A stretch of DNA of 64,000 nucleotides from Clostridia bacterium (GTDB taxonomy: Bacteria > Bacillota > Clostridia > UBA1381): positions 1-64,000 of the forward strand of contig JAZQKZ010000031.1 in NCBI GenBank assembly GCA_045542415.1, given 5' to 3'. Positions 5,068 through 46,078 of the stretch are shown here, in pieces. The translations under genes and the position numbers were made by a program. Under the pieces are notes generated by a model that worked only from the letters and a program-made list of their open reading frames with translations, was not told the DNA's origin and ran no database searches. The first letter of the stretch is position 1, and each line of letters begins with the position of its first letter.

Positions 5068-5080
5068 TATCTTCTTCTCC

Positions 5081-6486: not shown

Positions 6487-6509
6487 TCGCTCTCGCTCCT
6501 TTCTCTATC

Positions 6510-6548: not shown

Positions 6549-6602
6549 GGGATAAAAAAAATCGTTGCATGTCATCTAACATACAACGATATAATATGTA
6601 TC

Positions 6603-7280: not shown

Positions 7281-7479
7281 ATTATCACCCTGCCTTCCTT
7301 ACTTTTTTAATAAATCACCCATCAGCCCGGCTGAGGGATATTTTTTAATATATACTATTATACTATAAAAAACTTCATTTGTACAGTGTATTTTTATTTT
7401 ATTTTTTTCCTTTTTGTAAATTTGATATGAATTTACATGTAATTTTTTCATAAATTGTAAGTTTTTATATTCACACTTG

Positions 7480-7509
7480 GTATAAAATGCATTGAACCGG
7501 GTCAAAATA
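7480..7509 (+). promoter_or_regulatory. Sigma-F/G-type forespore promoter (GTATA -15 nt- GGTCAAAATA)
   Basis: GTATA at 7480-7484, a 15-nt spacer, then GGTCAAAATA at 7500-7509. This matches the sigma-F consensus GYATA-N15-GGnnAnAHTR and lies 43 nt upstream of the ATG at 7552. Confidence 0.5.
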
Positions 7510-7551
7510 TGTTTAGCAAAGCTAATAAATTTATTATGAGGAGGTTATTAT

Positions 7552-8298
7552 ATGAATAATAACTCAAGCAAAGACTCAAAAAAGACTTCCAACCGACTTC
7601 CTATGTTCTACATAGCACTCTGCTGCTGTGTACTCGCAATAGGTGTCGGCGGATATATTTCACAAAGTCTTTCAACCAGTGAAACAAGCTCTGTTTCGGA
7701 AAATGCGGTTGCCTATACACCAAAGCCCGTATTTACACCTGCACCGATTGAAACTCTTGAGCCTGTTGAGGAATTGCAGGTATTTGATGAGGAATATATC
7801 CCGGTGATTGTTCCGACAGAAATCCCTGTGGCTATGGCTCCGGACTACACCTATGACAATCCCGATACCATATATGCCAATGCGGACGCTGAAGTATTTG
7901 ACGGAGCGATTATCCCTGTCGAGGGCGATATTTTACAGCCCTACACCGATACCCCTTACTACAACGAAGTATTTGGTGACTGGCGTACTCATAACGGCAT
8001 AGATATCGCCGCCTCCGAGGGATGCGAGGTTATATGTGCCGCCAACGGAGAAGTAAAAAGCATCCGTTCTACAATATACGGTCACGAAATAACCGTATCA
8101 CACAGTGACGGTTATGAAACTGTATATTCACAGCTTACTCCCGTTGATACCTTAAATGAGGGTTCAAATGTACGCTGCGGCGATGTTATCGGAACGGTAA
8201 CAGCATCAAAAGGCGAGCCGGTCAAGGATCCGCATTTACACTTTGAAGTAAAGTGCGACGGTAAGTATATCAATCCTGCGGACTATGTCTCAAATTAA
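7552..8298 (+). CDS. Membrane-anchored M23/LytM family metallopeptidase, candidate SpoIIQ
   Basis: N-terminal TM helix. LytM motifs HNGIDIAASEG (HxxxD) and HLHFEV (HxH). Strong RBS AGGAGG. Forespore-type promoter and spoIIIA neighbourhood. Confidence 0.8.
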   Translation: MNNNSSKDSKKTSNRLPMFYIALCCCVLAIGVGGYISQSLSTSETSSVSENAVAYTPKPVFTPAPIETLEPVEELQVFDEEYIPVIVPTEIPVAMAPDYTYDNPDTIYANADAEVFDGAIIPVEGDILQPYTDTPYYNEVFGDWRTHNGIDIAASEGCEVICAANGEVKSIRSTIYGHEITVSHSDGYETVYSQLTPVDTLNEGSNVRCGDVIGTVTASKGEPVKDPHLHFEVKCDGKYINPADYVSN

Positions 8299-8311
8299 AG
8301 AGGATAATACG

Positions 8312-8345
8312 AAAAGAGGATGCTGATTACTTCGGCATCCTCTTC
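8312..8345. terminator. Bidirectional stem-loop (GAGGATGC...GCATCCTC) between the convergent M23 and GH35 genes
   Basis: 8-bp perfect stem followed by TTCGATTT. Confidence 0.5.
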
Positions 8346-8348
8346 GAT

Positions 8349-10388: not shown

Positions 10389-10500
10389 AATGAATACCTT
10401 CCTATCTCTGTTTTTTCTTTAGAATACCATATCAGGGATTATTTTTCAAGTACTTCGCAATTTTTATATATTTTTCAGCAAGAAAACAAAAATTCCTAAA

Positions 10501-10537
10501 CGAAAGGGAGCTGTTCAAATGAACAACTCCCTTTGAA
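10501..10537 (-). terminator. Rho-independent terminator after the beta-helix protein gene
   Basis: Stem AAAGGGAG...CTCCCTTT followed on the minus strand by a T-rich run. Confidence 0.5.
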
Positions 10538-10538
10538 A

Positions 10539-13500
10539 TTACTTCTTCGCACTAAGTGTCACACTGCTGCTTCCTGTATATGTTCCGCCTGTAACAAGAC
10601 CGTATGTACCATCAGTACTTCCGCTGACTTCACCGCCCGATACACTTCCGCCATAGTTCAATGTATAGCTGCTGCCGGATGTAAGTCCCGGTGCTGATAC
10701 CATTACCCATGCATAAGTCTTTGACGGAACATAAGTTACTATCTCATTTCCGCTTGCATCAGTAAGCTTAAATGCCTTACCTGCTGACTGACTTGTGAAG
10801 CTGCCTGTCGAGCTGCTGCTCTGACCCGGACGACCACCGCCCATTCCACCGCTGCTGCCTGATGTAACAACATAAGCCTGCGAATTTGTTGATGAGTTCG
10901 GTGTTACCGACATATCCGCACTGCCTGCACCGATTACTATACCGCCTGTGACTGTAAGTGTATAATTGCTTCCGTCACCGATATCAAATACGCCGTTACC
11001 GCCCGAGGTCGGACCGTTTACGAATACCATACCGCCGCTGACTAACGCTGATCCGTTTGAGTCAAAGCCGTCGCCCTCTGCTTCGATATAAAGCATACCG
11101 CCTGTAACCTCCAAGTAACCGTAGGTTGATGTATCCTCCTGTCCCCAGTTACCACCGCCGTTGAAACCGCCTGCCATAAGACTCGCCGACTCTGAAAGCG
11201 CTGCAGCTTCAACCGAATATGCATCCTCTGTCGGTTGGTCTCCTGCTGCATTGGCACCATCGTCCGACGCAACTACTCTAGTTTCACCGCCTGAGATATA
11301 AATTTCAGCTGCTTCAATTCCCTCATAGCTCTTGGTTACGTTAATCTTCGCACCCTCGCCTATGTAGAGATAATAATCGCCATGAACACCGTCGTCACCC
11401 GTTGCGGCAGTAATGTCACCGCCGTTAATTCTTACAGTGTGATTTGAATGAATTGCATCGTCATATGTATCAATATCAAATGTACCGCCTGTGATATTCA
11501 CAAGCTGACCTGCCTTTACGCCCTTGCAACTATCTGCCGCCTCGGCATTGTTCTCTGATGCCTGTGCAGGCGAACCACCGTATGCAGTCACATCAAATGT
11601 ACCGCCCGAAATATCTAAGATATAATCACTCTGGATACAGTCCATATATGAATCGATTATAAACTCGCCGTCAGTAATCGTTATATCACCCGTACCGCAC
11701 TGGATTCCGTCCTCACTGCATGTAATGTTTATTTTACCGCCCGTGAATTCCATTTCTCCATCCACCTGATAAAGAATAGTTTCTCCGTCAGTATCTGTGA
11801 TTGTTTCGTTTACCTGAATACCCTCAAGTGCCTTTAAAATTGTAATTTCGCCACCTGAAACAGTGATTTTCTTAACCGCCTTTATAGCGTCCTCACCTGC
11901 TTCAATTTCGATTGTGCCGCCACTGATTTCAATTGCACCGTCACCCTCTGCAAGAGTTACATCAGCAGTAGAATCAGCAAGATATCCAATACTTGATGCA
12001 TTCGCCTTCAAGGCTTCGCCCGTTGCATTGATTTTTATTGTTCCGCCCTTGATTGTAAGCAGTGTATCAGCCTGAATACCATCGCTCGTTGATACCTCAC
12101 CTGTTGTTGCATCAACCTCTGTTCCTGTTGTGATTGTTATATCACCACCGTTTATAGTAACCGTTCCACCGATAACCTCTCCTGTTGTTGCATCAAGCTC
12201 TGTCGGAGCTGTATCTGACTTGATGCCATCACCTACCGAATCAATAGTTATTGACTTATTCTTCTTTGTAACCTTTACTGAGTTATCACCCTTGATACCG
12301 TTATTTCCTGCCTTTACATAAATATCGCATACACCGATTTCAAGGTCTGCCTTTGAACGAATACCGTTTCCGTTTTCGGAAATTGCATTAATCTTACCGT
12401 CACCCTTGATTGTAAGATCATTCTTTGAATTAATTGCACAGCCGTCAGTTGTTGTAAATGTATTTTCCGTATCAGCTAACGGCACGAGTGTAATCTTACC
12501 CTTTTTACCGCTTATCGGGTCCTCCGATACCGATGTTACATTTACATTGTCAAGGTTAAGGATAATTTCGTCATCTGCTGTTGCGGATGATACTACAATC
12601 TGTCCCTCGTCAAGTGTACCCTCAACAGTATATTCACCAGGTGCTGAAATTGTAACAACACTTCCTACAACCGATGCACCCTCAACACCTGCCGCATTAA
12701 TTTCAGTACCCATAAGATGGATTATTCCATCTCCCTCCGGTACCTCTGTCGGCTCCGGAGTAGCTTCCGGTTCCGCTGTTGCACTACCTGTTGCAGTTCC
12801 GTATATAATAATATCATTAACCGCATATTCGCCGCTGTTACCTGTCAATACACCGCCGTTGATTGTTGTATTATCTGCCGGAACAATTCTTATGTAAAGC
12901 TTTTCAAGCTCTGATGAATCCGGAATACTTACTTTTTCAAAAGCATTGAAAAGCGTTTTATTGCTTGTTAACGTGTATTCTGTAACATTATTGAAGGTCA
13001 CTCCGTCTGTTGAATACTGTAATGCAATATTTGCAGGTCCTTTCTTTGTTGCACCCACCTTTGCCGATACCGTTATATCGGTATAGCCAAGTGTTGATAG
13101 TTCAACCTGAATATACGGATTTTCTCCCCATGCAGTTATTGGGGCAAGTGCAGGTGTATTTCTCACCAAGCCGCAGTCAGGGTCTGTATAGTCGCCCGAT
13201 GTAAGCGTCAATGCCGTTGCATTCGTTCCGTCCTCACTTGCTGAAATAAACGCCTGCGCAATTCCGTCTGTGTTATATTTATCTATCTTTGAATTGTTAA
13301 CATATCTGAATGCCGAAATAGCCCCCTCCTCAAGCGGTACTATTGTAGGTACTGCTGTCGGCTCCGGAGTTGCTGTTTCTGCCGGTGCATCCGTCACTGT
13401 CGGTACCTCTGTTGCTTGCGGTGTTTCTTCCGGAGTTGCTGTCTCTGCCGGCACCTCTGTTGCTTGCGGTGTTTCTGCCGGTGCTTCTGTCTCTGACGGT

Positions 13501-20995: not shown

Positions 20996-21649
20996 TCATC
21001 TTACAAGCAAACCATTTATACATCTATAAAGCCGCTTATTGAACCATTTTACTACCATTCCCGTTCCTACCGCCGCAATCAAGGTACCCTCTCTCGTACC
21101 CACCAACTGAAAATCAAAAAATATCAGCGACAATATGACCGACAGCGTTACACTGCTTATATCAAACACAATTTTAACATTTCCAAACTCCTTATGCAGT
21201 GTATCCGCAATCACCTTTACAAGTGCTTCTCCCGAATTCATTATTACATTAGCAATAAATGACAGCGATATACCAAAACCAAGTATAATAACACCGGACA
21301 GCACCATAACAAGACGCATTATATATCTGTCAACAGGTATAAAGGAGGCTATCCATAATCCAAAATCCGTAAAATAGCCAAGTGCAAACGCCAACGGTAT
21401 CTGCAAAAGCTGAATAGGTTCAAATTTCTTCCTGAGAATAAGAATCTGAGCAACCACCATCAGGCAGCTCCATATAATAAGCCATGTACCCATCGTGAAA
21501 AACGTAAATTTATAGCTTAAAACATTAGCAACCGACGAAATCGGCGACACACCCAGCTCACCTTTTTTGGTAAATGCAATTCCGAGTGCCGAGAAAAACA
21601 GACTGATTATAAATAATACATATCTCTTGGTTGTTTCTTTTCTATTCAT
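20996..21649 (-). CDS. YczE/YyaS-like polytopic membrane protein (DUF6198-like)
   Basis: 217 aa with 6 predicted TM segments, a GISxSFIANV-type motif and a basic N-terminus. Confidence 0.55.
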   Translation of the reverse strand: MNRKETTKRYVLFIISLFFSALGIAFTKKGELGVSPISSVANVLSYKFTFFTMGTWLIIWSCLMVVAQILILRKKFEPIQLLQIPLAFALGYFTDFGLWIASFIPVDRYIMRLVMVLSGVIILGFGISLSFIANVIMNSGEALVKVIADTLHKEFGNVKIVFDISSVTLSVILSLIFFDFQLVGTREGTLIAAVGTGMVVKWFNKRLYRCINGLLVR

Positions 21650-21831
21650 AATATACTTCCCTTCCGTGCTTCAATTTCTACGATATAATTATAACACGTT
21701 TTTCTCAACTATTCAACAAAATATTTTATTTTTACCTATAATTCTCTGTCTCACCCCAAGTCACTTAACCATAAACAAACGCATATTATAAAGTACAGTT
21801 ATAACTGAATAAATATATAGGAGTAAAAATA

Positions 21832-22023
21832 ATGGCTGAAAACAATAACATTTCACGCTGCTGCGGCTGTGTAGGCTATGCCTATGTTCCGATACAGGAG
21901 CTGAACGATATCTATGAGCCGTGTGACGCACTATTTATGGGAACTATCTTTCCTGAGCTGAATTTAAACATGTGTGAATACGGCAAGGTATGCAAAGGAG
22001 ATGGAGGTATTGTCAATGGATAA
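21832..22023 (+). CDS. cotJA: Spore coat-associated protein CotJA
   Basis: 63 aa with conserved CCGCVGYAYVPIQ...DALFMGTIFPELN motif. Followed by cotJB/cotJC. Confidence 0.8.
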   Translation: MAENNNISRCCGCVGYAYVPIQELNDIYEPCDALFMGTIFPELNLNMCEYGKVCKGDGGIVNG

Positions 22024-22273
22024 TCAGGCACACAGATTACGTCAGCTTCAATCAGCAAACTTTGCTGCATATGACATGCTGCTTTATCTCGACACACACT
22101 CAAATGACAAAAAGGCATTTGAAATTTTTAAATCGCTGGTTGACAAAACCAACAGACTCAGACATGAATACGAAAAAGATTTTGGTTCTTTAACGCCGTT
22201 CAACAGTGCTTACAAGAGCGAATTTGACTGGCTGAACAATCCGTGGCCATGGGATAAGGAGGCGAGCGAATAA
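22016..22273 (+). CDS. cotJB: Spore coat protein CotJB
   Basis: Start at MDNQAHRLRQLQSANFAAYDMLLYLDTH with RBS GGAGGT. Overlaps the cotJA stop by 8 nt. Confidence 0.8.
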   Translation: MDNQAHRLRQLQSANFAAYDMLLYLDTHSNDKKAFEIFKSLVDKTNRLRHEYEKDFGSLTPFNSAYKSEFDWLNNPWPWDKEASE

Positions 22274-22851
22274 TGTTTGAATACAGCAAATTTCTTGAAT
22301 TTCCGGTAAAAGTAAAAAACAAAAACCCCCGCCTCGCAAACATTATCATCACACAATATGGTGGACCCAATGGCGAGCTCGGTGCATCATTGCGATATTT
22401 GTCCCAGCGCTACACCATGCCTGACGAGGTCACAAAAGGGTTGCTGACTGATATAGGTGTTGAAGAACTTGGTCACCTTGAAATTGTGGGAACACTCGTC
22501 AAACAGCTCAGTGGTGATGCCGCTCCAAAAGAATGGTTAGAGATGGGTTCCTGGGAATACTATGCCGACAACGGTGCAAGTGTTTTTCCGCAAAATTCAC
22601 AAGGAACGCCGTTTAACGCCGCATCTATTGCAGTCACCGGCGATCCGCTGACCAATTTATATGAAAATCTTGCAGCAGAACAGAAAGCGAGAGCAGTGTA
22701 TGATAACATCCTCCGCTTATCGGACGATCCCGATGTAAACGAGGTTATAAAGTTCTTGCGACAAAGGGAAATTGTACACTTTCAGCGCTTCGGTGAAGCC
22801 TTGAACAAACTTCAGGAAAAGACCATCCGAAAAGGCTGTAAGATGAAATAA
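22273..22851 (+). CDS. cotJC: Spore coat protein CotJC (manganese catalase family)
   Basis: 192 aa. Mn-catalase-like ferritin-fold motifs (ELGASLRYLSQRY, EELGHLEIVGTLV). TAATG overlap with cotJB. Confidence 0.85.
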   Translation: MFEYSKFLEFPVKVKNKNPRLANIIITQYGGPNGELGASLRYLSQRYTMPDEVTKGLLTDIGVEELGHLEIVGTLVKQLSGDAAPKEWLEMGSWEYYADNGASVFPQNSQGTPFNAASIAVTGDPLTNLYENLAAEQKARAVYDNILRLSDDPDVNEVIKFLRQREIVHFQRFGEALNKLQEKTIRKGCKMK

Positions 22852-22935
22852 TAACCCTGCTATAAGGCACTGCTGTCCATAGACGGCAGTGCTTTTACTT
22901 GTTTTTATTATCGCATATCACGGTGTCTTGCGAAG
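22789..22935 (+). repeat. Repeat family copy A: the genuine cotJC 3' end, terminator and ~30 nt downstream
   Basis: Copy A is homologous to the segments at 33171-33531, 37676-38074 and 39286-39495. Confidence 0.8.
22867..22905 (+). terminator. Rho-independent terminator of cotJ operon
   Basis: Stem GCACTGCTGTC/GACGGCAGTGC, loop CATA, then TTTTACTTGTTTTT. Confidence 0.7.
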
Positions 22936-23147
22936 AATATTCAGATATTCCATAATTATAAAGATAAGGAACAGGACAGAAATAATTAAAATTTATACAG
23001 GTTAATATTTAAATATTGTTATTATTCAGAAAATTTGACACTGAAATTATAGAAGGGATCTGTGATATAATAGTATATAATTGTAAATAGCTGAAAGCAT
23101 TTACGCTGAAGGAGGAATTTTATATAAAAAAACAAATTGCAGTTTTT

Positions 23148-33003: not shown

Positions 33004-33170
33004 ACCAGAAAGAGCGTGCCGAATCGTATAGGGCGATATTATTAAAAGATATGCTAATCGCTTAAATGACGTGAACTACGAAGTATAAAATGATTCTTTG
33101 GAATTTCGTTGCGCGTATATGAAGCGGAATGCTGATTTTAATAAAAGTCATTAAAAATCCAATCAATAGC

Positions 33171-33531
33171 AAAACCTCACAATCCCAGACAACCCCTGCC
33201 TTCCCTCCCCTTTCCTTAACTTACTAATTTCGGTGAGGTCTTGAACAAACTCCAGGAAAAGACTATGCGTAAGGGCTGTAAGATGAAATAATAACCCTAC
33301 AAAAAGGCACTGCTCGCCCAATGGACGGCAGTGCCTTTGCTTGTTTTTATTATCGTATATCACGGTGTCCGGTTGAAGTCAATATTTCATAAAGGAAATT
33401 TTTGCGGCAAAGCAGTGTGTTGAACAATACTGTACGTTATTTGGAACAGTAAGGCGAATATTGACCTAAAATAAAGTTTTTTCTTCGTAAGGTGTATTGA
33501 ATATTATCGGAATAAATGATAGAATGATATT
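33171..33531 (+). repeat. Repeat family copy B (361 bp), containing a cotJC 3' fragment (..LNKLQEKTMRKGCKMK*) plus terminator
   Basis: Near-identical to copy C. Central ~130 nt is ~80% identical to cotJC end 22789-22935. The fragment has an in-frame TAA upstream, so it is non-coding. Confidence 0.85.
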
Positions 33532-33612: not shown

Positions 33613-34287
33613 ATGGGAAGAGTATTAACGGAAAATCAAGAATTATTGAAGGGATACTTATTGGAAGTGGGATGTAGCAAAATTGCAGTTTTGGTAATCA
33701 TTTTAGATGTTTGGGAGCCGGAAGAAACGTTAGATATGCTGCAGTTTTGCAAAGAAAATCATGGTACGGCAACAGAAAAAGATTTTGTTGCAGCGGCAAA
33801 AGAAATTTCTGTTAAGAAAGAAAAGCGAACCATTGAAGATGTTTGGAATATTGAGGACGGCTATGCTTTTTTAAGGGCCATGAATTTATACTTATCAATC
33901 AAGTGTAACTATGGTGATGAAATTAAAAATTTGAACGAGGAAGAAAAGACTTTTTTCTGTGTGCAGATTTTTGAAGAATATATACTTGATGGAAGTTTTA
34001 CAGGCTTTTTCTTTAATTCATGCGGAGATTTTGCAAACGAAATAGTTCCGGCATTGAAAAGGGTTGGGGCAATAAAAATGGCAGAAATTTGTGAAAAAGC
34101 ATTTAGCATATATGGTGATAAAGTCCCTATGGTCAGAGATGAAAGAAAAGAGATTTATAATTCAATGGGCGAAATAATGGAGAGAGTTGTTGATGAATGT
34201 CAAAATAGACTTTCGGATTGCAATAATAATCTTCCAGAATTATGTTATCAATTTATATTAAGCAACAAGGAATCTTTTTCGAAATAA
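33613..34287 (+). CDS. Hypothetical protein with C-terminal DUF4375/DMP19-like region (cassette g1)
   Basis: 224 aa. RBS AAAGAGGTG. C-terminal FFCVQIFEEYILDGSFTGFFFNSCGDF resembles the GGFxQFFxN block of DMP19/DUF4375 proteins, a family sometimes seen as immunity proteins. Confidence 0.55.
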   Translation: MGRVLTENQELLKGYLLEVGCSKIAVLVIILDVWEPEETLDMLQFCKENHGTATEKDFVAAAKEISVKKEKRTIEDVWNIEDGYAFLRAMNLYLSIKCNYGDEIKNLNEEEKTFFCVQIFEEYILDGSFTGFFFNSCGDFANEIVPALKRVGAIKMAEICEKAFSIYGDKVPMVRDERKEIYNSMGEIMERVVDECQNRLSDCNNNLPELCYQFILSNKESFSK

Positions 34288-34410
34288 ATCAGTTATTTTT
34301 TTGTATTAACTAAACACGAGTACCAAAGATTGGCGAAAGATGCCAAAAAAAGAAGCATAATATTTATGTGACATTATTATCCCTATAATCATAGATAAAG
34401 GAGTGATATT

Positions 34411-35412
34411 ATGAAATTATTTGATGATTTTGAAGCAGTTAAATTTCCCGAAGAAGATATGATTTTTATAACTGATAATGGATATCTCTATTATATTTAT
34501 AATTCTAAATATGAATATTGGAGAAAGCATCGTAATGCAGGAAACGACCATATCACAGTTAACAAATATCAAGATGTCAGCAAAGAAGAACTAATGAGTG
34601 CAATGCAAGGTATATACCCTGAAAAAGAAACTGACTTTATGAGATTGTGTAATCCTGAGCAATTATGTATTAGAGATATGTTGGATTTACTTAAAGAGGA
34701 TTATTCGAACTATATGTCAGATTACTCACTCTATCATACTGTTCATAGATTTTTATTAAAGTCTAACATATGCCATAAGTCTTTTTTAGAAACAAAAAAA
34801 CTTTTTGACAATGCCATTGCTCTTCAACAAGATAACAGGCAAGTTGTCGTTCAAATTAAAGAACTTTGTATTGCTATTATTGGTAGGGATATTTTCAAAG
34901 AAGAAATCGGCATAGTTGATGGACATGATTGTTCATCGTATTTTTGGATAATGCCGGTGAGAGTTATTGATTATTCAAATACGAATAATTGGGACAATGT
35001 TGCAGAAATGAGAAGTGCGGAGATTTCAATTGAGGAAGATGATGTTGGTCGATACCTTACGCCTTTTCTCTATAAGCACTATGATGATGAGCTTGAAGCT
35101 AATAAAAAGAGAGTTGAAGATTGTTGGATAGATAATGAAGGTAACGAGCAGATATCGGTTGTAAGCGGTTTTGAATGGTATTTGACACATAATTTCTACA
35201 CATTTAATTCTATGATGGATATTCTAAAAGATATTGGCGATACGATTGACGCTTTATCTTCGGGAAGAGAAAATGAATTTACAGTTAAACTAAAAGATAG
35301 CGAGGTTGAGCTCGTTATTGATTTTTACAATAGATTTATATACAGGATGGAATATATGATGAAAGTTGGTAAAGAAAAGGGCTATGATTTAATTTCTTTT
35401 ATGGGACCTTAA
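34411..35412 (+). CDS. Hypothetical protein (cassette g2), no recognisable domain
   Basis: 333 aa acidic, W/Y/F-rich. RBS AAAGGAG. Confidence 0.55.
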   Translation: MKLFDDFEAVKFPEEDMIFITDNGYLYYIYNSKYEYWRKHRNAGNDHITVNKYQDVSKEELMSAMQGIYPEKETDFMRLCNPEQLCIRDMLDLLKEDYSNYMSDYSLYHTVHRFLLKSNICHKSFLETKKLFDNAIALQQDNRQVVVQIKELCIAIIGRDIFKEEIGIVDGHDCSSYFWIMPVRVIDYSNTNNWDNVAEMRSAEISIEEDDVGRYLTPFLYKHYDDELEANKKRVEDCWIDNEGNEQISVVSGFEWYLTHNFYTFNSMMDILKDIGDTIDALSSGRENEFTVKLKDSEVELVIDFYNRFIYRMEYMMKVGKEKGYDLISFMGP

Positions 35413-35499
35413 AAAAGAGTTGAATCTAACCCTTATATCCCGCATAGTAAACACATCGTAAGATGTCGAAAATATTTTGAGAAAGGATGTTGAATCATA

Positions 35500-35640
35500 T
35501 CGTAATGCAATTTTAAATACTGCAAGGGTTCTCGCTCAAAACGGCGTTACGGAAAACTCCTTTTATTGTATAAAAATAAATGAAAAGGACAGGACACTTA
35601 AGCTGTCAGACAGGCAGGTAAAATATTAATAATCGGAAAA
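35500..35640 (+). pseudogene. Start-less gene remnant (..DVENILRKDVESYRNAILNTARVLAQNGVTENSFYCIKINEKDRTLKLSDRQVKY*)
   Basis: 56 sense codons bounded upstream by an in-frame TAA and lacking a start; reads like the C-terminus of a decayed gene. Confidence 0.3.
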
Positions 35641-35730
35641 GGAAGTGTTCAGAGATGTTTTGCGATGAAATAATAGAAAAAGTTTATATTATAGCTCCAG
35701 ACTATGAAGTATAATGTGAGGTGATAAATC

Positions 35731-36372
35731 TTGAACAAAACAGAGTATTTACTTGAACTTTGTCATAAACCGGAGAGTAATATAGCCGAAATAGAACAAT
35801 ATCTCAATGAAAGTGGTTTTAATCCGGAAGAAACTACTCATCTGTTATTCCGTTTCCTGGAGGAGTATGCTTATCACTTTGAATGTCCCAGACCGTTGCC
35901 GGATGACCTTATTGAACCTAAATTAATAGAAGTATTTAAGGTCTTTTCAAAATATGGATTGCAACCTAATCTGATTATTAACGAATTAAATATCATGCAG
36001 GTAATTCGTCATATTTATTATGGCAATACAGCTCCGGTTTTAGTGCGAATGTTGCTGGAGCATGGCTTAGATCCAAATCTGGAAGTTGACGGAGAAACGA
36101 TATTTGAGGAGCTTGATTTCGATATTGTGTTTGATGTTGTGGAGTTGGAAAATAAGGCTCTGTTTAATATTGAATTTAAAGTCTGGCTGGTTATGATGGG
36201 CTACGGAGGAACTATTCAGGGCGGAAGATGTCCGGTAGAACTAAAAAACGGGTATGAGATTGAGATGTTTAAGCGTTTCGAAAACTTTGACTATGAGATA
36301 GAATTTCTTAAAAAGGACTGGATAATGCACATCTTTAACAAGGAGAGCGGCGAAGAGGTTGCGATATTGTAG
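35731..36372 (+). CDS. Hypothetical protein (cassette g3), TTG start in ORF track
   Basis: 213 aa, acidic. No motif recognised. Confidence 0.45.
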   Translation: MNKTEYLLELCHKPESNIAEIEQYLNESGFNPEETTHLLFRFLEEYAYHFECPRPLPDDLIEPKLIEVFKVFSKYGLQPNLIINELNIMQVIRHIYYGNTAPVLVRMLLEHGLDPNLEVDGETIFEELDFDIVFDVVELENKALFNIEFKVWLVMMGYGGTIQGGRCPVELKNGYEIEMFKRFENFDYEIEFLKKDWIMHIFNKESGEEVAIL

Positions 36373-36492
36373 TTTGGCGAAAATATAATGCGAGGTGGCA
36401 AAACCAAAGATGAAAAAACAATAGCGATAATGATGGGGATTCAGGGTAGCGGTATAGCTACATATTTGAAGTTGCAAAGGAGTATTTATATT

Positions 36493-36969
36493 ATGGTTTA
36501 TGGAGCAATAAATAGAAAAGGCGAAAAATGCTATACACATCTGAAAAAAGTTTTTGATGCAATCGGAAATAAACAAAAAGATTATAATTGGTTAATAACA
36601 GATTGCGAATGTTATCCCAATGATAGCACGCTAAGAGAACTATTTAATAAAGAGTACTGTTTCATTTCCGGAGAAGAATTGACAGAGATTGTTTCAAAAG
36701 AAGACTTTCTATGGATTTGGGCAGTTTTGTCGGGATTTGACAAAAAGGTGTCTATAGAGCAAATCTTAAAACATGAATTGCCTTATGCAGATGGGTATGC
36801 CGGTTTTTGGAATAATCCATTATCACTCCAACACCCATTATCTTGTATAGAGATTGTTCCCTGGGATAGTTCGCTGGTTTTGCTTTTGAGCAAGGATACG
36901 GAAGTAGTTGAAAAATTTATTAAATCATTTCCATATAGTGAAAAACTGGAAGACTATAATAGTAAATGA
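36493..36969 (+). CDS. Hypothetical protein (cassette g4; paralogue of 38744-39220)
   Basis: Start MVYGAINRKGEK after RBS AAGGAG. ~90% identical to g4' at protein level. Confidence 0.6.
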   Translation: MVYGAINRKGEKCYTHLKKVFDAIGNKQKDYNWLITDCECYPNDSTLRELFNKEYCFISGEELTEIVSKEDFLWIWAVLSGFDKKVSIEQILKHELPYADGYAGFWNNPLSLQHPLSCIEIVPWDSSLVLLLSKDTEVVEKFIKSFPYSEKLEDYNSK

Positions 36970-37032
36970 TTTTTTGCCTGAATTGACACGAGCATATAAT
37001 CAGTCAAATTTATCAAAAGAGAGGAGTTGTAT

Positions 37033-37618
37033 TATGACAGCACAAATTACGGACATATATTATTATAAAACAAGACAATATAACATTGTGGCGATGAGCG
37101 ACAAACCGGATTTCCATCCAAGAAACTTGGGCTTGGATGTGTCATGTAATAACACCGCTTGTTGGAGAGGGTATTGGTGTGAATATGAAATATCAGAAGA
37201 TATCATTTTCCTGGAAAAGCTGTTTGTTAATACTGTGGACGGGAAATATCCGGATATAAACGGCATAAGAGTTAACAAAAAGTCAGATGAATATAGGGGG
37301 CACAGAGCGTATGAAGGTTTATCAATGGCTATAAATTATACAGGCAAAATACTTCTTGGCGACGAACGGATTCTCGAATATGGTATTAATGCAGGACATC
37401 CAAGTCCGTGGGAATACAAGATATTAAAGGAATTTGTTTTTGAAAAGAGTAAATTAACTAAAATTAATGATTACAGTTCAATTGCAAAAGATATAAGAGA
37501 AACAGCAGAAAACGAGCTTAGGGATGTGGATGAATTCAAACAATTTTATATTCTTGATAAAATAGCAAAAGAAAAGCTCCCTATAGAATATAATATTCAT
37601 AGAGCAAGTTGGGGATGA
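37033..37618 (+). CDS. Hypothetical protein (cassette g5; N-terminus reused in repeat copies C/D)
   Basis: Start MTAQITDIYYYK after RBS AGAGGAG. 195 aa. Confidence 0.55.
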
Positions 37619-37675
37619 TTCAGTAAACATCAAGTATGGGATAAAGTAAATCTCTAAAGAGACTTAAGGAAACAG

Positions 37676-38074
37676 TGCAAATCACTATTTACTAAAATTA
37701 TTGATAAAATAAACAAAACCTCACAAACCCAGACAAATCCTGCCCTAACAGCCCTTTCCTTAAATTACTAATTTCGGTGAAACCTTGAACAAACTCCAGG
37801 AAAAGACTATGCGTAAGGGCTGTAAGATGAAATAATAACCCTACAAAAAGGCACTGCTCGCCCAATGGACGGCAGTGCCTTTGCTTGTTTTTATTGTCGC
37901 ATATCACGGTGTCCGGTTGAAGTCAATATTTCATAAGGGTAATTTTTGCGGCAAAACACTGTGTTGAACAATACTGTACGTTATTTGGAACAGTAAGGCG
38001 AATATTGACCTAAAATAAAGATTTTCTTCGTAAGGTGTATTGAATATTATCGGAATAAATGATAGAATGATATT
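37676..38074 (+). repeat. Repeat family copy C (g5-start remnant, ~60 nt, cotJC 3' fragment, terminator and ~200 nt)
   Basis: 37715-38074 nearly identical to 33171-33531. 37676-37714 matches the 39286-39330 segment of copy D (acagtgcaaatcactattt...ttattgataaaataaac). Confidence 0.85.
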
Positions 38075-38108
38075 AACATAGCATTACGAGGATAGAAGGT
38101 GCAAAATC

Positions 38109-38318
38109 TTGGATAACGTAAAGAGAGAATTATTCAATCAAATAGAAAAGTTAAATCTTGAAGAAGACTGGGCAAGAGGCACACTCAAAGAAGCTCCGTT
38201 TTGGAGAGACGGAATGACACCGGAAGAGTATGATGAAGAAAACATATATTTGCAAAGACATTGGGACGAGTATATGAATAATACTTATGTTCCTCTTTGG
38301 AAGCAGAAGGAGCTTTGA
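38109..38318 (+). CDS. Hypothetical small acidic protein (cassette g6, 69 aa)
   Basis: ORF with RBS-like GGATAGAAGGTG upstream. Confidence 0.4.
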   Translation: MDNVKRELFNQIEKLNLEEDWARGTLKEAPFWRDGMTPEEYDEENIYLQRHWDEYMNNTYVPLWKQKEL

Positions 38319-38319
38319 T

Positions 38320-38685
38320 ATGGTTACATTTAAATTAGTAGAAGAAAACAGTCATAGTCTTATTTATCATTATTTCCCTAATGGAGAAGAAAACAGTGAA
38401 TCTGGCGTTATAGTCGTAGATAAAGAAAAAAATCAAATATATGTAAAAGACTTATCGCCAAAGGATTTTATGAGAATAGAAACTATAGCAGAGCAAAATG
38501 AAATGAGAGATTCCGTGAATGAGATGCGAAAAATAGAAGGACTGGGTGAACTTAGCGAGGAAGAATGGCCGATTGCCACAGAAGATATTGTCATTAGATT
38601 TTTTGCGGATCATGCCATGAATAAAATTTGGAATGCATATGTCAAGGGTGAAGTTTTGCAAAGCGGTACAGTGATGTGGTATTAG
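38320..38685 (+). CDS. Hypothetical protein (cassette g7, 121 aa)
   Basis: Start MVTFKLVEEN after RBS AGAAGGAG. ORF track extends to 38287. Confidence 0.5.
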   Translation: MVTFKLVEENSHSLIYHYFPNGEENSESGVIVVDKEKNQIYVKDLSPKDFMRIETIAEQNEMRDSVNEMRKIEGLGELSEEEWPIATEDIVIRFFADHAMNKIWNAYVKGEVLQSGTVMWY

Positions 38686-38743
38686 CAAATTTGCGAAGAA
38701 TATTCAGATATTACACAAGCGAGATTTTGAAAGGGGCAGTATC

Positions 38744-39220
38744 ATGGTTTATGGAGCAATTAATAAAAAAGGTGAAAAATACTATACGCATCTGAAAAAA
38801 GTTTTTGATGCAATTGGAAATAAACAAAAAGATTATAATTGGTTAATAACAGATTGCGAATGTTGTCCCAATGATAGCACTTTAAGAGAACTATTTGATA
38901 AAGAGTACTGTTTCATTTCCGGAGAAGAATTGACGGATATTGTTTCAAAAGAAGACTTCCAATGGATTTGGGCAGTTTTATCCGGGTTTGACAAAAAGGT
39001 ATCTATAGAGCAAATCTTGAAACATGAATTACCTTATGCAAATGGATATACCGGATTTTGGAATAATCCATTATCGCTGCAACACCCATTATCTTGTATA
39101 GAGATTGTTCCTTGGGATAGTTCGCTGGTTTTGCTTTTGAGCGAGGATAAGGAAGTAGTTGAAAAATTTATTAAATCATTTCCGCATAGTGAAAAACTGG
39201 AAGACTATAATAGCAAATGA
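38744..39220 (+). CDS. Hypothetical protein (cassette g4'; paralogue of 36493-36969)
   Basis: 158 aa, near-identical to g4. Confidence 0.6.
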   Translation: MVYGAINKKGEKYYTHLKKVFDAIGNKQKDYNWLITDCECCPNDSTLRELFDKEYCFISGEELTDIVSKEDFQWIWAVLSGFDKKVSIEQILKHELPYANGYTGFWNNPLSLQHPLSCIEIVPWDSSLVLLLSEDKEVVEKFIKSFPHSEKLEDYNSK

Positions 39221-39284
39221 TTTTGTGCCTGAATTGACACGAGCATATAATCAGTCAAATTTATCAAAAGAGAGAAGTTTTATT

Positions 39285-39386
39285 ATGACAGCACAAATCA
39301 CTATTTCTGGAATTATTGATAAAATAAACAAAGCCCAACAACCCCAGGCAAACACCGGCTTCCCTCCCCCATCCTTAAATTACTAA
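39285..39386 (+). pseudogene. Truncated g5 paralogue (MTAQITISGIIDKINKA...) running into repeat copy D
   Basis: First 6 codons identical to g5, then the reading frame continues into repeat sequence and stops after 33 codons. Confidence 0.5.
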
Positions 39387-39495
39387 TTTCGGTGAAGCCT
39401 TGAACAAACTCCAGGAAAAGACCATGCGTAAGGGCTGTAAGATAAAATAATAACCCTGCTATAAGGCACTGCTCGCCCAATGGACGGCAGTGTCT
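39286..39495 (+). repeat. Repeat family copy D (truncated, mosaic of copy A-like and copy B/C-like segments)
   Basis: ttcggtgaagccttgaacaaac identical to true cotJC; middle ccctgctataaggcactgct is A-like; cgcccaatggacggcagtg is B/C-like. Confidence 0.8.
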
Positions 39496-39653
39496 TTTTT
39501 CCGTTTCTTATAACGTAAAACTGTTAGGTTGATATAAACTATTGATGCCAAATAGTTTGGAATGTGAACAAATATATGTTGAAAAATCTTTTCTGGTATA
39601 GTATAATAAAAACAATAAAGAATTCCATTTTGATTTCAGGGAGGGATAATAAA

Positions 39654-43056: not shown

Positions 43057-43152
43057 CTAAAAGGCGAATTTCGCGGGTATGTCCCCGATTTTGTGTAAGA
43101 CTTCACCACAACCGCCTTTCAATATTTCACAATCAATTGTGATTTTGAGCAT
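43057..43152 (-). pseudogene. Truncated copy of the Mu-F-like gene (MLKITIDCEILKGG then divergent, 31 aa)
   Basis: First 14 codons identical to those of 44028-44480, including the TCACAATCAATTGTGA palindrome. Confidence 0.5.
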
Positions 43153-43221
43153 GATAAAAGCACGTTCAGCGGCGACTTTGTCGTCTGCATTAGTAACGTG
43201 CTTTAAATCCTTTATTTAGTT

Positions 43222-43413
43222 TTATAAAATCAATTTTACCGTTTCACACATATAATCACCACATTCGTCACATTTGAATTGATGGCATTTTTTTAAATCC
43301 TCATACCCACTTCCAACCGGTCTGTAGAAGCCTTTTTCACAATTCGAGCATCTAACTTCTTCGCTAGCATGTAACTTTTTAAAGTTCTTAATTATATCCA
43401 TATAAATCCCCAT
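43222..43413 (-). CDS. Small CxxC...CxxC zinc-ribbon protein (paralogue of 44507-44671)
   Basis: 63 aa, likely start MDIIKNF at 43401. Motif VRCSNCEKGFYR...KCDECGDYM. Confidence 0.5.
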   Translation of the reverse strand: MGIYMDIIKNFKKLHASEEVRCSNCEKGFYRPVGSGYEDLKKCHQFKCDECGDYMCETVKLIL

Positions 43414-43554
43414 TTCTTAGATGCGAATATTCCTTGCTTACATGATTTATAATCTCTTTTATATCTTCTTCTGTTGCATTACTTTTTTATGCATAAGCTC
43501 CGCCAAATAACAATTTATTTCATTTCCAGCGAACCTCTCCAAGTAAAACGTGCT

Positions 43555-43794
43555 TTAAAAATATTCATCTAAATCAATGTCTGATTTAATGTATATTGCT
43601 CCTATAAGAAAATCATTATATACTTTTATCCTATCATTGTCTCTCCTGTATTCCTGAATACAGGAGCCATCTACATCTTCTAAAAGAGACTCTTTTATCA
43701 ATCCGGGTATTCTATTCTCCAATACCTCACACTGTTTATAAAATATTTCCTCGTCTGCTTGATTGCATATATTATATTCTTTCATATAACTCAC
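43555..43794 (-). CDS. Hypothetical 79-aa acidic protein
   Basis: ORF ending at a copy of the ACGTGCTTTAA motif. Confidence 0.4.
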   Translation of the reverse strand: MSYMKEYNICNQADEEIFYKQCEVLENRIPGLIKESLLEDVDGSCIQEYRRDNDRIKVYNDFLIGAIYIKSDIDLDEYF

Positions 43795-43799
43795 TCCAA

Positions 43800-44027
43800 A
43801 CCGTATTTTTTGTTTACTTCTTTATTTGTTTTTGGTGCTGTGGCTAATATATCTTCAATGGCGTCATCTCTTGTCATAAATTTTCTTTTCATTTTATCTT
43901 CAATCAATTCTTAAAAAGATTTATTAGGTCTTTTATCATCTAGTCTCTTGCATTCTTTTTGGTCTTTCATCAAATCTCTGCGCGTTCGTCCTGTACTCAC
44001 AAGCCCCGACATATCTTTAAAATCCAT
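43800..44027 (-). pseudogene. Frameshifted gene remnant (MDFKDMSGLVSTGRTRRDLMKDQKECKRLDDKRPNKSF* / ..ELIEDKMKRKFMTRDDAIEDILATAPKTNKEVNKKYGLE*)
   Basis: Two adjacent reading frames on the minus strand separated by a frameshift near 43915. Both read as sensible protein segments. Confidence 0.35.
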
Positions 44028-44480
44028 TTAATTTAAGCGACTTTGCTTTTGCTTTTTCAGCTCCGCCCACTTTGCACTATCATTATACTTCAATTCTTGG
44101 AACTTGTCAATGCTTCGTGGTACGTCCTTTCCAAATATAGCTCTGTATTTTTCGTGCTGTGCCTTATCAGCGTCATTATTTCTATACTTCCGTCCGGTCA
44201 CCTCAAAAGCCGCCTTTTCCTCCGGGTTCATACCGTCCCGCCACTGTTCATATGTAACCGAACCGTCAATCATATCATCATGCCCCGTCCCCGGATTCCT
44301 CGCACGTTTCACACGTCCTCTCGTCAAGCGTAGCCATGTATTTGTAGTATTTTCATTATACCCCTTTAAATCGCCCCCGGAACGTGCGTGAGCAATTTCT
44401 GTGCGTATCAGCGTAGTTGCTCTTGACTCTGTCACATCACCGCCTTTCAATATTTCACAATCAATTGTGATTTTGAGCAT
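44028..44480 (-). CDS. Stand-alone phage Mu-F / SPP1 gp7-like (head-morphogenesis-type) domain protein
   Basis: 150 aa. LIRTEIAHARSGG and ARNPGTGHDDMIDGSVTYEQW match the Mu-F-domain pattern (aRTE...R..H...DG....W). Confidence 0.55.
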   Translation of the reverse strand: MLKITIDCEILKGGDVTESRATTLIRTEIAHARSGGDLKGYNENTTNTWLRLTRGRVKRARNPGTGHDDMIDGSVTYEQWRDGMNPEEKAAFEVTGRKYRNNDADKAQHEKYRAIFGKDVPRSIDKFQELKYNDSAKWAELKKQKQSRLN

Positions 44481-44506
44481 GATAAAAGCACGTTACAAAA
44501 CGTGCT
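44481..44506. repeat. Perfect 10-bp inverted repeat hairpin AAAGCACGTT-ACAA-AACGTGCTTT
   Basis: Read directly. Half-sites recur at 43150-43159 / 43194-43203 (split by 34 nt), 43547-43557 and 44751-44761. Confidence 0.7.
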
Positions 44507-44671
44507 TTAATCTATATTCATTTTTGCTTTGCAATAATCACATTCAAAATAATGGCTTATTTTATAATCATATGGAGTCCTCCAAAAACCTTTATTACAG
44601 AGGTCGCACTTTACTTCTTCGCCATTTCTTAATTTCTCCAGTTCGTTTAAAAACTTTTCTCCATAATTCAT
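44507..44671 (-). CDS. Small CxxC...CxxC zinc-ribbon protein
   Basis: Start MNYGEKFLNE after RBS GGAGGAAG. VKCDLCNKGFWR...ECDYCKAKM. Confidence 0.55.
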   Translation of the reverse strand: MNYGEKFLNELEKLRNGEEVKCDLCNKGFWRTPYDYKISHYFECDYCKAKMNID

Positions 44672-44809
44672 ACTACTTCCTCCATGAATATTCAGGATAT
44701 AATGAACTGTACCATTTTGTGCGGACAGCACAAAATGGTGCAGTTCAAACGTGCTTTAAATCCTTTATTTAGCTTCAATATATAATTTGTCAAAAGGTGC
44801 GTTTCGTTC

Positions 44810-44989
44810 CTACCAAAACGTACCTCCTTCTTTGGGTTTATAATCAATTCCATTGTTGCACTCTTTCAGTTCCTCCAAATCTTTAAATGCATGGTCATAC
44901 CGAACACCGTCAGGAAACGCATCGCATACAAAAATTCCATTTTTCAACCCTCTGCAATTAGCACAATTATCACAATAACTAAACTTCAT
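44810..44989 (-). CDS. Small Cys-rich protein (59 aa, CDNCANC...C...C)
   Basis: Below the ORF-track cutoff. ATG preceded by GGGAGGTG. Translation MKFSYCDNCANCRGLKNGIFVCDAFPDGVRYDHAFKDLEELKECNNGIDYKPKEGGTFW. Confidence 0.4.
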   Translation of the reverse strand: MKFSYCDNCANCRGLKNGIFVCDAFPDGVRYDHAFKDLEELKECNNGIDYKPKEGGTFW

Positions 44990-45222
44990 CGTTTTTCACC
45001 TCCCATATATTTATTGAAAAAACCCATTGCTTTTTTAGGAATTTTATTTATCTCTTTTCGCTCCAATAATACTCCGATTTCTGCAATACATTCAGCCCCA
45101 TCATCACTCGCTATTTGACTTACATTTGGGATTCTTATATTTTAATTCGCCATACAGCTTCCCTGTATTAGCTTCACATAACCATATTCATGTATTACAG
45201 AAAATTCGTCTCAATCGATTCC

Positions 45223-45645
45223 TCAAATCAAAATACCGTTGCAATGATCAATCTCATGCTGAATAATCTGTGCTGTCCACCCCTCAAAGGTCTTTGTCCG
45301 TACCTTGAAATCAGCCGTCTGATACTGTACTCTGATTTTCTTATATCTTTTTGTTTTCCTCGGACCGCCAAGCAATGACAGACATCCCTCCTCTGTCTCG
45401 TATGGCTCCGAAAATTTAATTATTTCCGGATTGAACATGGTCATGTAAGCACCGTTATTATCAAAGCAAATAATTCTCTTCTTAACGCCTATCATATTCG
45501 CCGCCATCCCTACACAGCCGTCCTTATGTGCAATTAATGTATCAAGCAAATCCTCGGCTGTCTGTAAATCCGCAGCAGCTGCCGCCTCCGATTTTTGTCC
45601 TAAAAATATCGGATCATGTATCAATTCTTTTATCATAAATATCAC
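45223..45645 (-). CDS. def: Peptide deformylase (short form)
   Basis: Motifs GMAANMIG, EGCLS, HEIDHCNG (metal ligands Cys and two His). Confidence 0.8.
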   Translation of the reverse strand: MIFMIKELIHDPIFLGQKSEAAAAADLQTAEDLLDTLIAHKDGCVGMAANMIGVKKRIICFDNNGAYMTMFNPEIIKFSEPYETEEGCLSLLGGPRKTKRYKKIRVQYQTADFKVRTKTFEGWTAQIIQHEIDHCNGILI

Positions 45646-45674
45646 CTGTATTTCTATAATATATTATTAGTCCG

Positions 45675-45989
45675 TCAATCCGCATCCTCTTCAAGTGCTT
45701 CAATATAAAAGCTCACGGGTCTGAAGCCGTCATTACATGAAATCATCGCGGATTTTTTATTTTTCATCCACCCGTCATATAAATTTTCACCGCCATGAGA
45801 TAATGCCATAACAAATGAGGACATACTTTCCCACGCACTGTCACATAAATCCTGAGGCTTTTGCCAGCCGTTTGCAATAAAAACCTGTCCCTTTTGCATA
45901 TCACACGCATGCTCTATAGGATTTTCATACTGCTCTATTAAATCATCATACCGAGCTGTTTTCATTACTGTTATTCTGCACTTTTTCAT
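45675..45989 (-). CDS. Small Cys-containing protein, TIGR04076-like
   Basis: 104 aa. MKKCRITVMKT... C..GQVF..G.QKP.DLCDSAW..M...V.ALSHGG...YDGWMK...ISCNDGFRPV.FYIE. Confidence 0.45.
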   Translation of the reverse strand: MKKCRITVMKTARYDDLIEQYENPIEHACDMQKGQVFIANGWQKPQDLCDSAWESMSSFVMALSHGGENLYDGWMKNKKSAMISCNDGFRPVSFYIEALEEDAD

Positions 45990-46078
45990 TCAATCTCACT
46001 CCCCTGTCCTATGGTGGATTATAATAATATTATAGCATATAAGCTTATAAAAGGTCAAGCTCTATGCTTTTCACAAAT

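Follow-up and report, generated by a model that had tools for sequence, protein, structure and literature searches.

Copies of the cotJC 3' end delimit a low-GC islet of small genes, probably decayed cargo of integrative elements, in a Clostridia chromosome

The 64,000-nt window considered here (positions 1 to 64,000 of contig JAZQKZ010000031.1 from the Clostridia bacterium assembly GCA_045542415.1) carries between 33.2 and 39.5 kb an islet of small plus-strand genes, g1 to g7, arranged in two blocks which are each closed by a repeat of the tail of cotJC, a manganese catalase gene (Table 1). The flanking genes are spoIIIAA/AE, lysA, clpX, tig (trigger factor), cotJC, hydE/G/F-type genes and genes of large secreted carbohydrate-active enzymes (CAZymes), and the sequence surrounding the islet is core chromosome of a spore-forming member of the Clostridia. 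The GC content of the islet is 0.30–0.36 compared to 0.42–0.46 on either flank. The corresponding values for the islet genes are 0.31–0.37 versus 0.41–0.45 in a comparison set of ten other window genes, and at third codon positions 0.26–0.39 versus 0.38–0.47 in the other window genes. Likewise, Trp, Tyr and Phe together account for 10.7–14.5% of the residues of the islet proteins versus 4.8–10.4% in ten other window proteins. A previous sequence-only reading of this DNA had described the islet genes as AT-rich, rich in aromatic residues and acidic; the first two attributes are borne out by these values, and the third is correct as such (isoelectric points of 4.5–5.7) but is no distinguishing mark of the islet proteins, since the range overlaps with that of ten other measured window proteins (4.3–5.8). 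The open reading frames (ORFs) listed in that reading, g1–g7 and the second copies g4' and g5', are all present on the plus strand; the likely starts of g4, g5 and g7 were selected on the basis of homologue lengths and ribosome-binding sites. The window contains no tRNA gene, and Rfam gave no match at gathering thresholds over the whole window and none at E ≤ 1 between 32.9 and 39.75 kb.

Table 1. Position of cotJC, of the repeats R1–R3 and of the genes and gene remnants of the islet in the window.
Feature	Position	Strand	Description
cotJC (R0)	22273-22851	+	Intact manganese catalase gene; Pfam Mn_catalase, E 1.8e-51; core from 22789
R1	33170-33531	+	Left arm, 56-nt core 33229-33284, hairpin terminator ~33301-33337, ~190-nt segment
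R1 promoter-like site	33497-33525	+	TTGAAT-17-TAGAAT, TG ahead of second hexamer; ends the ~190-nt segment
g1	33613-34287	+	224 aa; N-terminal ~78-aa module and DMP19 domain (residues 106-218)
g2	34411-35412	+	333 aa; large unnamed family, several domains
Remnant 1	35477-35629	+	Start-less; C-terminal ~41 codons of a 175-aa gene; tblastn 49% to L001 14644-14766, E 6e-9
Remnant 2	35655-35714	+	First 19 codons and stop of a 210-aa gene, intact in L006 (9104-9736)
g3	35731-36372	+	213 aa; weak ankyrin-repeat similarity mid-protein; orthologue in L006
g4	36493-36969 (mechanical ORF 36388-36969)	+	158 aa; DUF2691
g5	37034-37618 (ORF 36908-37618)	+	194 aa; small family; orthologue in L006
R2	37672-38074	+	14-nt g5-start relic 37672-37685, left arm, core 37773-37828, terminator ~37845-37881
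R2 promoter-like site	38040-38068	+	TTGAAT-17-TAGAAT, TG ahead of second hexamer
g6	38109-38318	+	69-aa ORF, TTG start, 1 nt from g7; least certain gene
g7	38320-38685 (ORF 38287-38685)	+	121 aa; unnamed family
g4'	38744-39220	+	Second DUF2691 copy
g5'	ORF 39159-39386; ATG-started 33 codons 39285-39386	+	ATG and 14 nt of g5 joined to the R3 left arm
R3	39288-39497	+	Left arm, core 39388-39443, terminator ~39463-39499

The product of the intact cotJC gene terminates with ...FGEALNKLQEKTIRKGCKMK*, and it is from the last ca. 19 codons together with the terminator that the repeats derive. The homology spans FGEALNKLQEKT.RKGCKMK*, the stop codon and the hairpin terminator, it begins sharply at TTCGGTGA in every copy, and the sequence of the core is TTCGGTGAAGCCTTGAACAAACTCCAGGAAAAGAC.ATGCGTAAGGGCTGTAAG. 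A 24-mer from the cotJC 3' end matches four sites of the window with at most one mismatch (none expected by chance), and the embedded cotJC fragments noticed in the earlier reading are indeed found as copies of this 3' end beginning at 33229 (R1), 37773 (R2) and 39388 (R3). R1 and R2 show 94.5% identity across 362 nt and have a further ca. 30 nt past the terminator in common with cotJC; R3 is 86.7% identical to R2 over 211 nt and lacks their promoter segment. The hairpins of the repeats are followed by a T-run on their 3' side, and the fold of R2 is only modestly better than that of shuffled sequence (z -2.1). The left arms of R1–R3 are 73–82% identical to each other and unrelated to the cotJC flank (16–36%). 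The possibility that the left arm is coding sequence joined to the cotJC fragment was ruled out, since the cotJC frame has a TAA three codons upstream of FGE. The AGA-YXIM-type gene downstream of R3 has its own strong promoter-like site (39579-39607). The mechanical ORF of this gene starts with GTG 39564 within the R3 flank, and a signal-peptide-like sequence, MNKKLISLALSLSMLG, starts at ATG 39654, 3' of the promoter-like site; of the two, ATG 39654 is the likelier start.

A single close relative was found, a 22.8-kb contig (L006) of a Clostridia metagenome-assembled genome (GCA_045540855.1), which contains the same parts in another order. It shares g3 (90% protein identity), g5 (81%), g7 twice (87–90%) and a frameshifted g6, with an overall range of 80–96%, in the order g6-g7 ... 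g7-g5-[210-aa gene]-g3, unlike that of the window, and interspersed with genes for Fic, two HipA, YgjP and an AAA_33/Thg1 pair. Copies of the repeat are present as well, namely a full one at 6827-7194, the promoter segment alone at 4951-5158 ahead of g6-g7, and core-only copies (ca. 56 nt) at 1843 and 11744 which are succeeded by different terminators and one of which also has a distinct left arm. These copies separate Fic plus a 61-aa gene, the two HipA genes, the run g6-g7-127aa-YgjP and the run 111aa...g7-g5-210aa-g3-AAA_33-Thg1 from each other and thereby mark the boundaries of functionally coherent blocks. The breakpoints between the window and L006 are no more than a few tens of nucleotides away from a start or a stop codon, and the homology among R1, R2 and the L006 copies ends ca. 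6 nt past the -10-like box, with a different gene following each of them. The islet is hence non-syntenic with its relative, and its horizontal acquisition and accessory nature are supported. The picture of an island with duplication, decay and embedded repeats given in the earlier reading holds. Neither housekeeping nor sporulation families were matched by the islet genes, and synteny is lacking in L006.

The islet also records several rearrangements. A block of 562 nt comprising g4 and the start of g5 (36489-37050) recurs at 38740-39301 with 93.4% identity. The earlier estimate of ca. 90% identity for g4 and g4' agrees with the 93% found at the protein level; the description of g5' as a truncated gene understates its condition, as g5' has in common with g5 the upstream region and no more than the first 17 coding nucleotides (ATG and ACAGCACAAATCAC), the homology ending at 39301. 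A 14-nt motif, ACAG(C/T)(A/G)CAAAT(C/T)AC, occurs at three places only, at the start of g5 (37037), just upstream of R2 (37672) and at the junction of g5' and R3 (39288), and if a copy of the g4-g5-R block lost the stretch between the first two, exactly the arrangement g4'-g5'-R3 would result. On the basis of this pattern g5' looks like the product of a deletion between 14-nt direct repeats and would not be a working copy. The synonymous divergence (dS) between g4 and g4' (0.28) is similar to that between the islet genes and their L006 orthologues (0.24–0.40), and the second copy is thus either old or was brought in from a related lineage. The start-less remnant reported at 35.5 kb was found again (remnant 1), and a second one (remnant 2) had been overlooked. 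The latter is 91% identical to L006 over 65 nt (blastn; window 35651-35715, L006 9100-9163), and the homology restarts at 35720, corresponding to L006 9765, so that ca. 600 nt are deleted in the window.

Ratios of nonsynonymous to synonymous substitution rates, computed for g3, g5 and g7 against L006 and for g4 against g4', are 0.19 (g3), 0.25 (g5), 0.15 (g7) and 0.11 (g4) and indicate that these four are working genes under purifying selection. The resemblance of the g1 C-terminus to DMP19/DUF4375 recognized in the earlier reading is substantiated by the Pfam profile PF14300 (E 9.2e-18, 65.3 bits compared to a cutoff of 25, profile positions 2–112 of 112). Its N-terminal module is 40–45% identical to two small ORFs of the viral contig L098. 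These 74–75-aa ORFs (6345-6572 and 7992-8216), which match g1 residues 1–78, lie within a stop-free ORF of 2756 aa (2981-11251) with internal repeats, in a frame other than that of the large ORF, and may be overprinted genes or reflect a mis-read gene structure. In g2 no enzyme fold was recognized; its family comprises at least 748 clusters, and the ca. 120 listed ones are 57–81% identical to the query. Residues 99–123 of g3 weakly match the sequence of an ankyrin-repeat protein in the PDB (E 5.7e-4). The DUF2691 profile (PF10903) is matched by g4 with E 5.3e-8 and 33.3 bits and by g4' with 27.6 bits (cutoff 25); this family has at least 852 clusters, and PF10903 was found in most of the 120 listed relatives, again 57–81% identical to the query. 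For g5, 13 cluster matches were obtained, with an invariant N-terminal MTAQ, by which Thr2 would be exposed once Met is removed, and a CWRGYWCEY motif. Evidence for g6 consists of the ORF itself and its L006 copy, whose frameshift divides the match into two segments. The g7 family contains 180 representative clusters (50% identity, E ≤ 1e-3).

Further searches for functional clues remained largely empty. Neither Pfam nor the PDB gave a match for g7, and a profile search of PDB sequences was empty for both the g7 and the g4 families; a fold search of BFVD with g4' returned nothing at E ≤ 0.001. A distant paralogy of g4 and g7 was ruled out (hhalign probability 0.1%). PADLOC yielded no family at E ≤ 1 for seven proteins, PHROGs and NCBIfam provided nothing meaningful for the islet proteins, and catalytic domains were not recognized with Pfam, NCBIfam, PADLOC or PHROGs. 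Plasmid matches were found neither for the island DNA nor for g1, g2 and g7, phage matches were absent for g2, and IMG/VR contained no relatives of g2 and g3. Look-ups of the exact protein sequences of g1, g2 and CotJC gave no record.

The genomic surroundings of homologues were sampled at three places each for g2, g4 and g5 and at 80 for g7. Relatives of g2 are located in a same-strand array of small genes unrelated to one another, amid genes of sugar metabolism, and close to SMODS/SLATT, Hen1/Pnkp, PemK and integrase genes. Those of g5 are found in the L006 island, in a small-gene array downstream of guaA, and behind a serpin gene in the vicinity of CD-NTase/Cap15 and restriction-modification genes. 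Relatives of the DUF2691 proteins lie between Abi_alpha, a CyanoTRADDas_TM gene, an AAA_15/21 ATPase and a Gp49/HTH pair, but also among small metabolic genes; DUF2691 further occurs alone on Priestia plasmids (37% identity) without a nearby toxin. For the g7 loci, all from metagenomes (L018-L097), the ORFs closest to the match were grouped into clusters, and representatives of five of these neighbour clusters were scanned against Pfam. An upstream ORF was found in 73 of the 80 loci, most frequently a same-strand HTH_3 gene (28 of 73), furthermore VapE (8) and, as judged by eye, an IS200-type transposase (7). A downstream ORF, found in 66 loci, was a PDDEXK_2 transposase-like gene in 19 and EF-Tu in 15 of them, also by eye. 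The contig end lies within 800 nt of 28 of the 80 g7 matches, as if these were beside repeated DNA, and three g7 matches in IMG/VR are positioned at the very end of the viral region. The XRE-type helix-turn-helix (HTH) gene directly upstream of g7 relatives at those 28 of 73 loci codes for 177 aa, suggesting that it forms together with the g7 relative a two-gene regulator module carried by mobile elements. A role of g6-g7 as a conserved toxin-antitoxin pair was ruled out, as a g6 homologue is present at none of the 80 g7 loci and g6 is frameshifted in L006. Relatives of all four families have a patchy distribution and resemble mobile cargo; no fixed partner was apparent for the g2, g4 and g5 families, g7 being the exception by its pairing with an XRE-type regulator.

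Beyond these families, long same-strand arrays of short unrelated genes were seen in three loci (L001, L007 and L016) of different Clostridia. They have several families in common, among them DUF5714, LMWPc, PAS, rhodanese, GNAT, nitroreductase, ArsC, DHFR, Pirin and others. The L007 array begins just downstream of guaA, and the organisation of all three resembles that of cassette arrays. In two further loci, L008 and L009, a g5 relative (P0127) directly follows a serpin gene in a conserved run of a 335-aa gene, a radical SAM gene, a 155-aa gene, the serpin gene and the g5-like gene.

The origin of the repeats was analysed by comparing the cores and arms of seven copies, four from the window including R0 and three from L006. 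Six cores are 84–96% identical to each other and the seventh has 70–75% identity to these six. The left arm of cotJC bears no relation to those of the other copies (16–36% identity), and a second left arm is common to five copies (62–82%). The R0-type right arm is likewise common to five copies and is weakest in R0 itself, and the right arms of two L006 copies are unrelated (20–39%) and carry different terminators. The copies are thus direct repeats that share a core with the target gene and differ in their arms, as is characteristic of attachment (att) sites, and from the way in which one conserved core is joined to several left and right arms of unrelated sequence we infer site-specific integration, since the duplication of one segment would not yield such a pattern. 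Evidence for cotJC as a target comes from other genomes as well. In a passage of a preprint (10.1101/2021.11.22.469490, citing Abe et al. 2013) cotJC is named among the sporulation genes into which phages or transposons often integrate, and the phi027 prophage of C. difficile sits beside a CotJC-like gene. Moreover, six IMG/VR contigs (L102-L107) carry a CotJC that is 85–88% identical to that of the window and is split near residue 66 into pieces of residues 1–68 and 64–177. The N-terminal piece of L106 is adjoined by a large serine recombinase of 526 aa (Resolvase, Recombinase and Zn_ribbon_recom), and in L103, a phage amidase gene lies upstream of the C-terminal piece. These split genes look like the result of a skin-like intervening prophage in a related Clostridia lineage, and they show that elements target cotJC in this clade, though elsewhere than at the 3'-end core. 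With moderate confidence, and judging from the architecture of the copies, we regard the repeats as att scars left by elements that integrated at the cotJC end.

On this basis we consider it on balance somewhat probable that the region between 33.2 and 39.5 kb is a decayed cargo islet of integrative mobile elements which has been reshuffled via its repeats, rather than an array for immunity or defence. In this scenario, elements would integrate at the end of cotJC, with the core serving as the identity segment of the attachment site and the copies being left behind as scars. Homologous recombination between the scars would then duplicate and reorder blocks of genes, a deletion between short repeats would remove one g5 copy, and internal deletions would leave behind the two remnants. 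As R1 and R2 hold the cotJC terminator followed by a promoter-like site, two transcription units are probable, one running from the R1 promoter through g1-g2-g3-g4-g5 to the R2 terminator and one from the R2 promoter through g6-g7-g4' to the R3 terminator. At present the repeats might therewith serve both as substrates for recombination and as units of terminator and promoter. The products would presumably act in a non-enzymatic manner by stoichiometric binding and inhibition of other proteins, g1 perhaps as a DMP19-type DNA mimic blocking a DNA-binding protein and g7 perhaps together with an XRE-type regulator.

Several observations weigh against this interpretation. The split point in cotJC of the viral contigs lies near codon 66 and not at the 3' end, and these contigs show that the gene is targeted but not the use of this site. 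A recombinase gene was found neither among the scanned window ORFs, which are a part of all its ORFs, nor among the called genes of L006. R1–R3 are 10 kb apart from cotJC with three CAZyme genes of normal GC content in between, and simple serial integration at cotJC is thus insufficient as the sole explanation. The core was detected in only one other contig among 185,579 species genomes and in none of the JGI metagenomes or IMG/VR viral contigs; since it is so rarely found, the att reading is based on seven copies from two genomes. Promoter-like matches are overall as frequent as in shuffled sequence (30 found, 30.5 expected), and the view of the products as most likely non-enzymatic protein binders is deduced from size, charge, one family assignment and a weak fold resemblance. 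Some of these points would suit an alternative without any att scars, in which an ancestral cotJC-terminator-promoter segment was copied by segmental duplication and unequal crossing-over and imported DNA recombined through the resulting homology, no site-specific recombinase being required. A recombinase is indeed seen neither in the window nor in L006, the repeat is limited to one lineage, R1 and R2 share 362 nt at 94.5% identity and thus far more than a minimal att core, and the plainly duplicated g4-g5-R block as well as the 14-nt microhomology deletion demonstrate active general recombination. Against it stand the abrupt start of the homology at TTCGGTGA in all copies and the two core-only copies of L006, which have unrelated right arms and other terminators, in one case also a distinct left arm; in addition, cotJC is independently documented as an integration target. 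We therefore rate it as unlikely.

A similarly low likelihood is attributed to an orphan immunity array, according to which g1–g7 would each neutralise a toxin of a competitor (LXG/type VII secretion, Rhs or MuF-borne), be kept without the cognate toxins and be diversified by duplication. The DNA-mimic fold expected for the DMP19 domain of g1 could block nuclease toxins, the islet encodes small acidic proteins with many aromatic residues, duplication and decay are evident, and a MuF-like phage fragment followed by small acidic ORFs is found 4.6 kb away. Against it, a scan of ten ORFs with Pfam at E ≤ 1 gave no match to Imm, SUKH or SMI1/KNR4 families, and NCBIfam contributed nothing relevant. 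Recognizable toxins (LXG, Rhs, WXG100, CdiA, MuF-toxin) are absent beside the homologues at the sampled places, a small sample in the case of g2, g4 and g5, and the window itself yielded no gene for a toxin or a secretion system. Apart from g4 and g4' the genes are mutually unrelated (the direct comparison covered the g7 and g4 families). Moreover, the listed relatives of g2 and DUF2691 retain 57–81% identity to the query, unlike fast-diverging immunity genes, which are usually far less conserved. The earlier statement that no toxin, nuclease or ATPase gene is adjacent holds inside 33.6–39.4 kb and has to be supplemented by the MuF-like fragment downstream. That the islet is a genuine anti-phage defence island, with at least one of its gene sets constituting a defence system, appears highly improbable. 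Such an island would be in line with the location of g2, g4 and g5 homologues elsewhere near SMODS/SLATT, CD-NTase/Cap15, Abi_alpha, AAA_15/21 ATPase, restriction-modification and toxin-antitoxin genes, and with the modules of Fic, HipA and Thg1/AAA_33 that L006 has in its corresponding island. However, PADLOC is empty for all genes, domains of nucleases, ATPases, NTases, proteases or membrane effectors were not found, g2, g4 and g5 have no conserved partner across the loci, and the same families also occur amid ordinary metabolic genes. No direct test lent support to the earlier label "immunity or defence-like", which is kept as a minority reading; in some other genomes g2, g4 and g5 homologues do lie inside defence islands, beside CBASS-like genes or Abi, restriction-modification or toxin-antitoxin modules.

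The postulated cargo islet shares features with several known systems. Tycheposon-type arrays are islands that arise by repeated insertion into the 3' end of one target gene, with tandem partial copies of the target in the form of tRNA fragments. Common features are direct repeats derived from the 3' end of one gene, unrelated blocks of cargo, a shared core with differing arms, a foreign composition and many blocks without their own recombinase. The islet deviates in that its target is a protein-coding sporulation gene 10 kb away, that two repeats contain a putative promoter and that a recombinase was not seen. With the elements and prophages that intervene in sporulation genes, namely skin (sigK), SPbeta (spsM) and vfbin (spoVFB), it has in common that cotJC is, according to the preprint passage cited above, a recognized integration locus. 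In contrast to those elements, which interrupt the coding sequence and are excised in sporulation, cotJC is intact here, only its last ca. 19 codons are repeated and the cargo genes are few. Integron cassette arrays likewise consist of promoterless single-gene units in one orientation behind a shared promoter, and the breakpoints relative to L006 are correspondingly gene-sized; the islet repeats, however, bound multi-gene blocks and an IntI-type integrase was not found. No attC-like hairpin motif was noticed by eye in the 16–123-nt intergenic regions, for which no motif search was made.

Orphan immunity genes are known from the recombinase-associated acquired interbacterial defence clusters of Bacteroidales and the DUF600/EsaG arrays of Staphylococcus, with which the islet shares small cytoplasmic proteins encoded on the same strand, repeats between units, duplication, decay and horizontal acquisition. 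It differs from them by the lack of a recombinase at the head of the array, by DMP19 as the sole immunity-type family, by homologues for which no link to toxins was found and by its mostly unrelated genes. DMP19 of Neisseria meningitidis is a DNA-mimic protein which blocks an XRE-type transcription factor. The acidic g1 matches its full Pfam profile with residues 106–218, but has an additional N-terminal part of ca. 100 residues, the first ca. 78 of which match the viral-contig ORFs, and lacks an adjacent XRE-type gene.

If correct, the proposed origin would provide a compact case of integration scars at a sporulation gene turning into recombination and expression modules that gather and shuffle cargo in gut or rumen Clostridia. 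The object as such is of a known kind and attracts interest by its clear repeat anatomy and by three large uncharacterised families; the locus alone leaves the current understanding of defence and immunity unchanged. The g2-like, DUF2691 and g7-like proteins represent common mobile cargo families without a known role and, as their structure models are confident or obtainable, are reasonable candidates for functional screens. A more far-reaching variant, which we deem quite improbable, would be that the 56-nt core is a recombination site for a recombinase encoded elsewhere in the genome, which inserts and reorders small cargo modules behind a portable terminator-promoter as a Firmicute counterpart of integron- or tycheposon-type capture, and that the g2, DUF2691 and g7 families are new classes of inhibitors (immunity or anti-defence) among its cargo.

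Two other regions of the window deserve mention. A second low-GC patch (0.33–0.39) of small genes extends from 43100 to 46000 on the minus strand. It comprises the phage minor-head (MuF-like) fragment of 150 aa (44028-44480, minus strand; phrog_21033, E 5.5e-8; phrog_115, E 6.3e-6), 4.6 kb downstream of the islet, Cys-rich ORFs of 59–74 aa, an acidic ORF of 79 aa and a short peptide-deformylase paralogue (45223-45645). Its 104-aa gene (45675-45989) matches L007 13212-13504, the segment 44839-44990 matches L006 12044-12195, and the patch looks like another patch of cargo or phage remnants. Finally, the GC skew flips from ca. -0.25 to +0.18 at 21000-23000, where the cumulative skew has its minimum. 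This flip coincides with the switch of gene orientation from the minus to the plus strand just upstream of the cotJ genes and could be a mere gene-orientation effect or a replication landmark.

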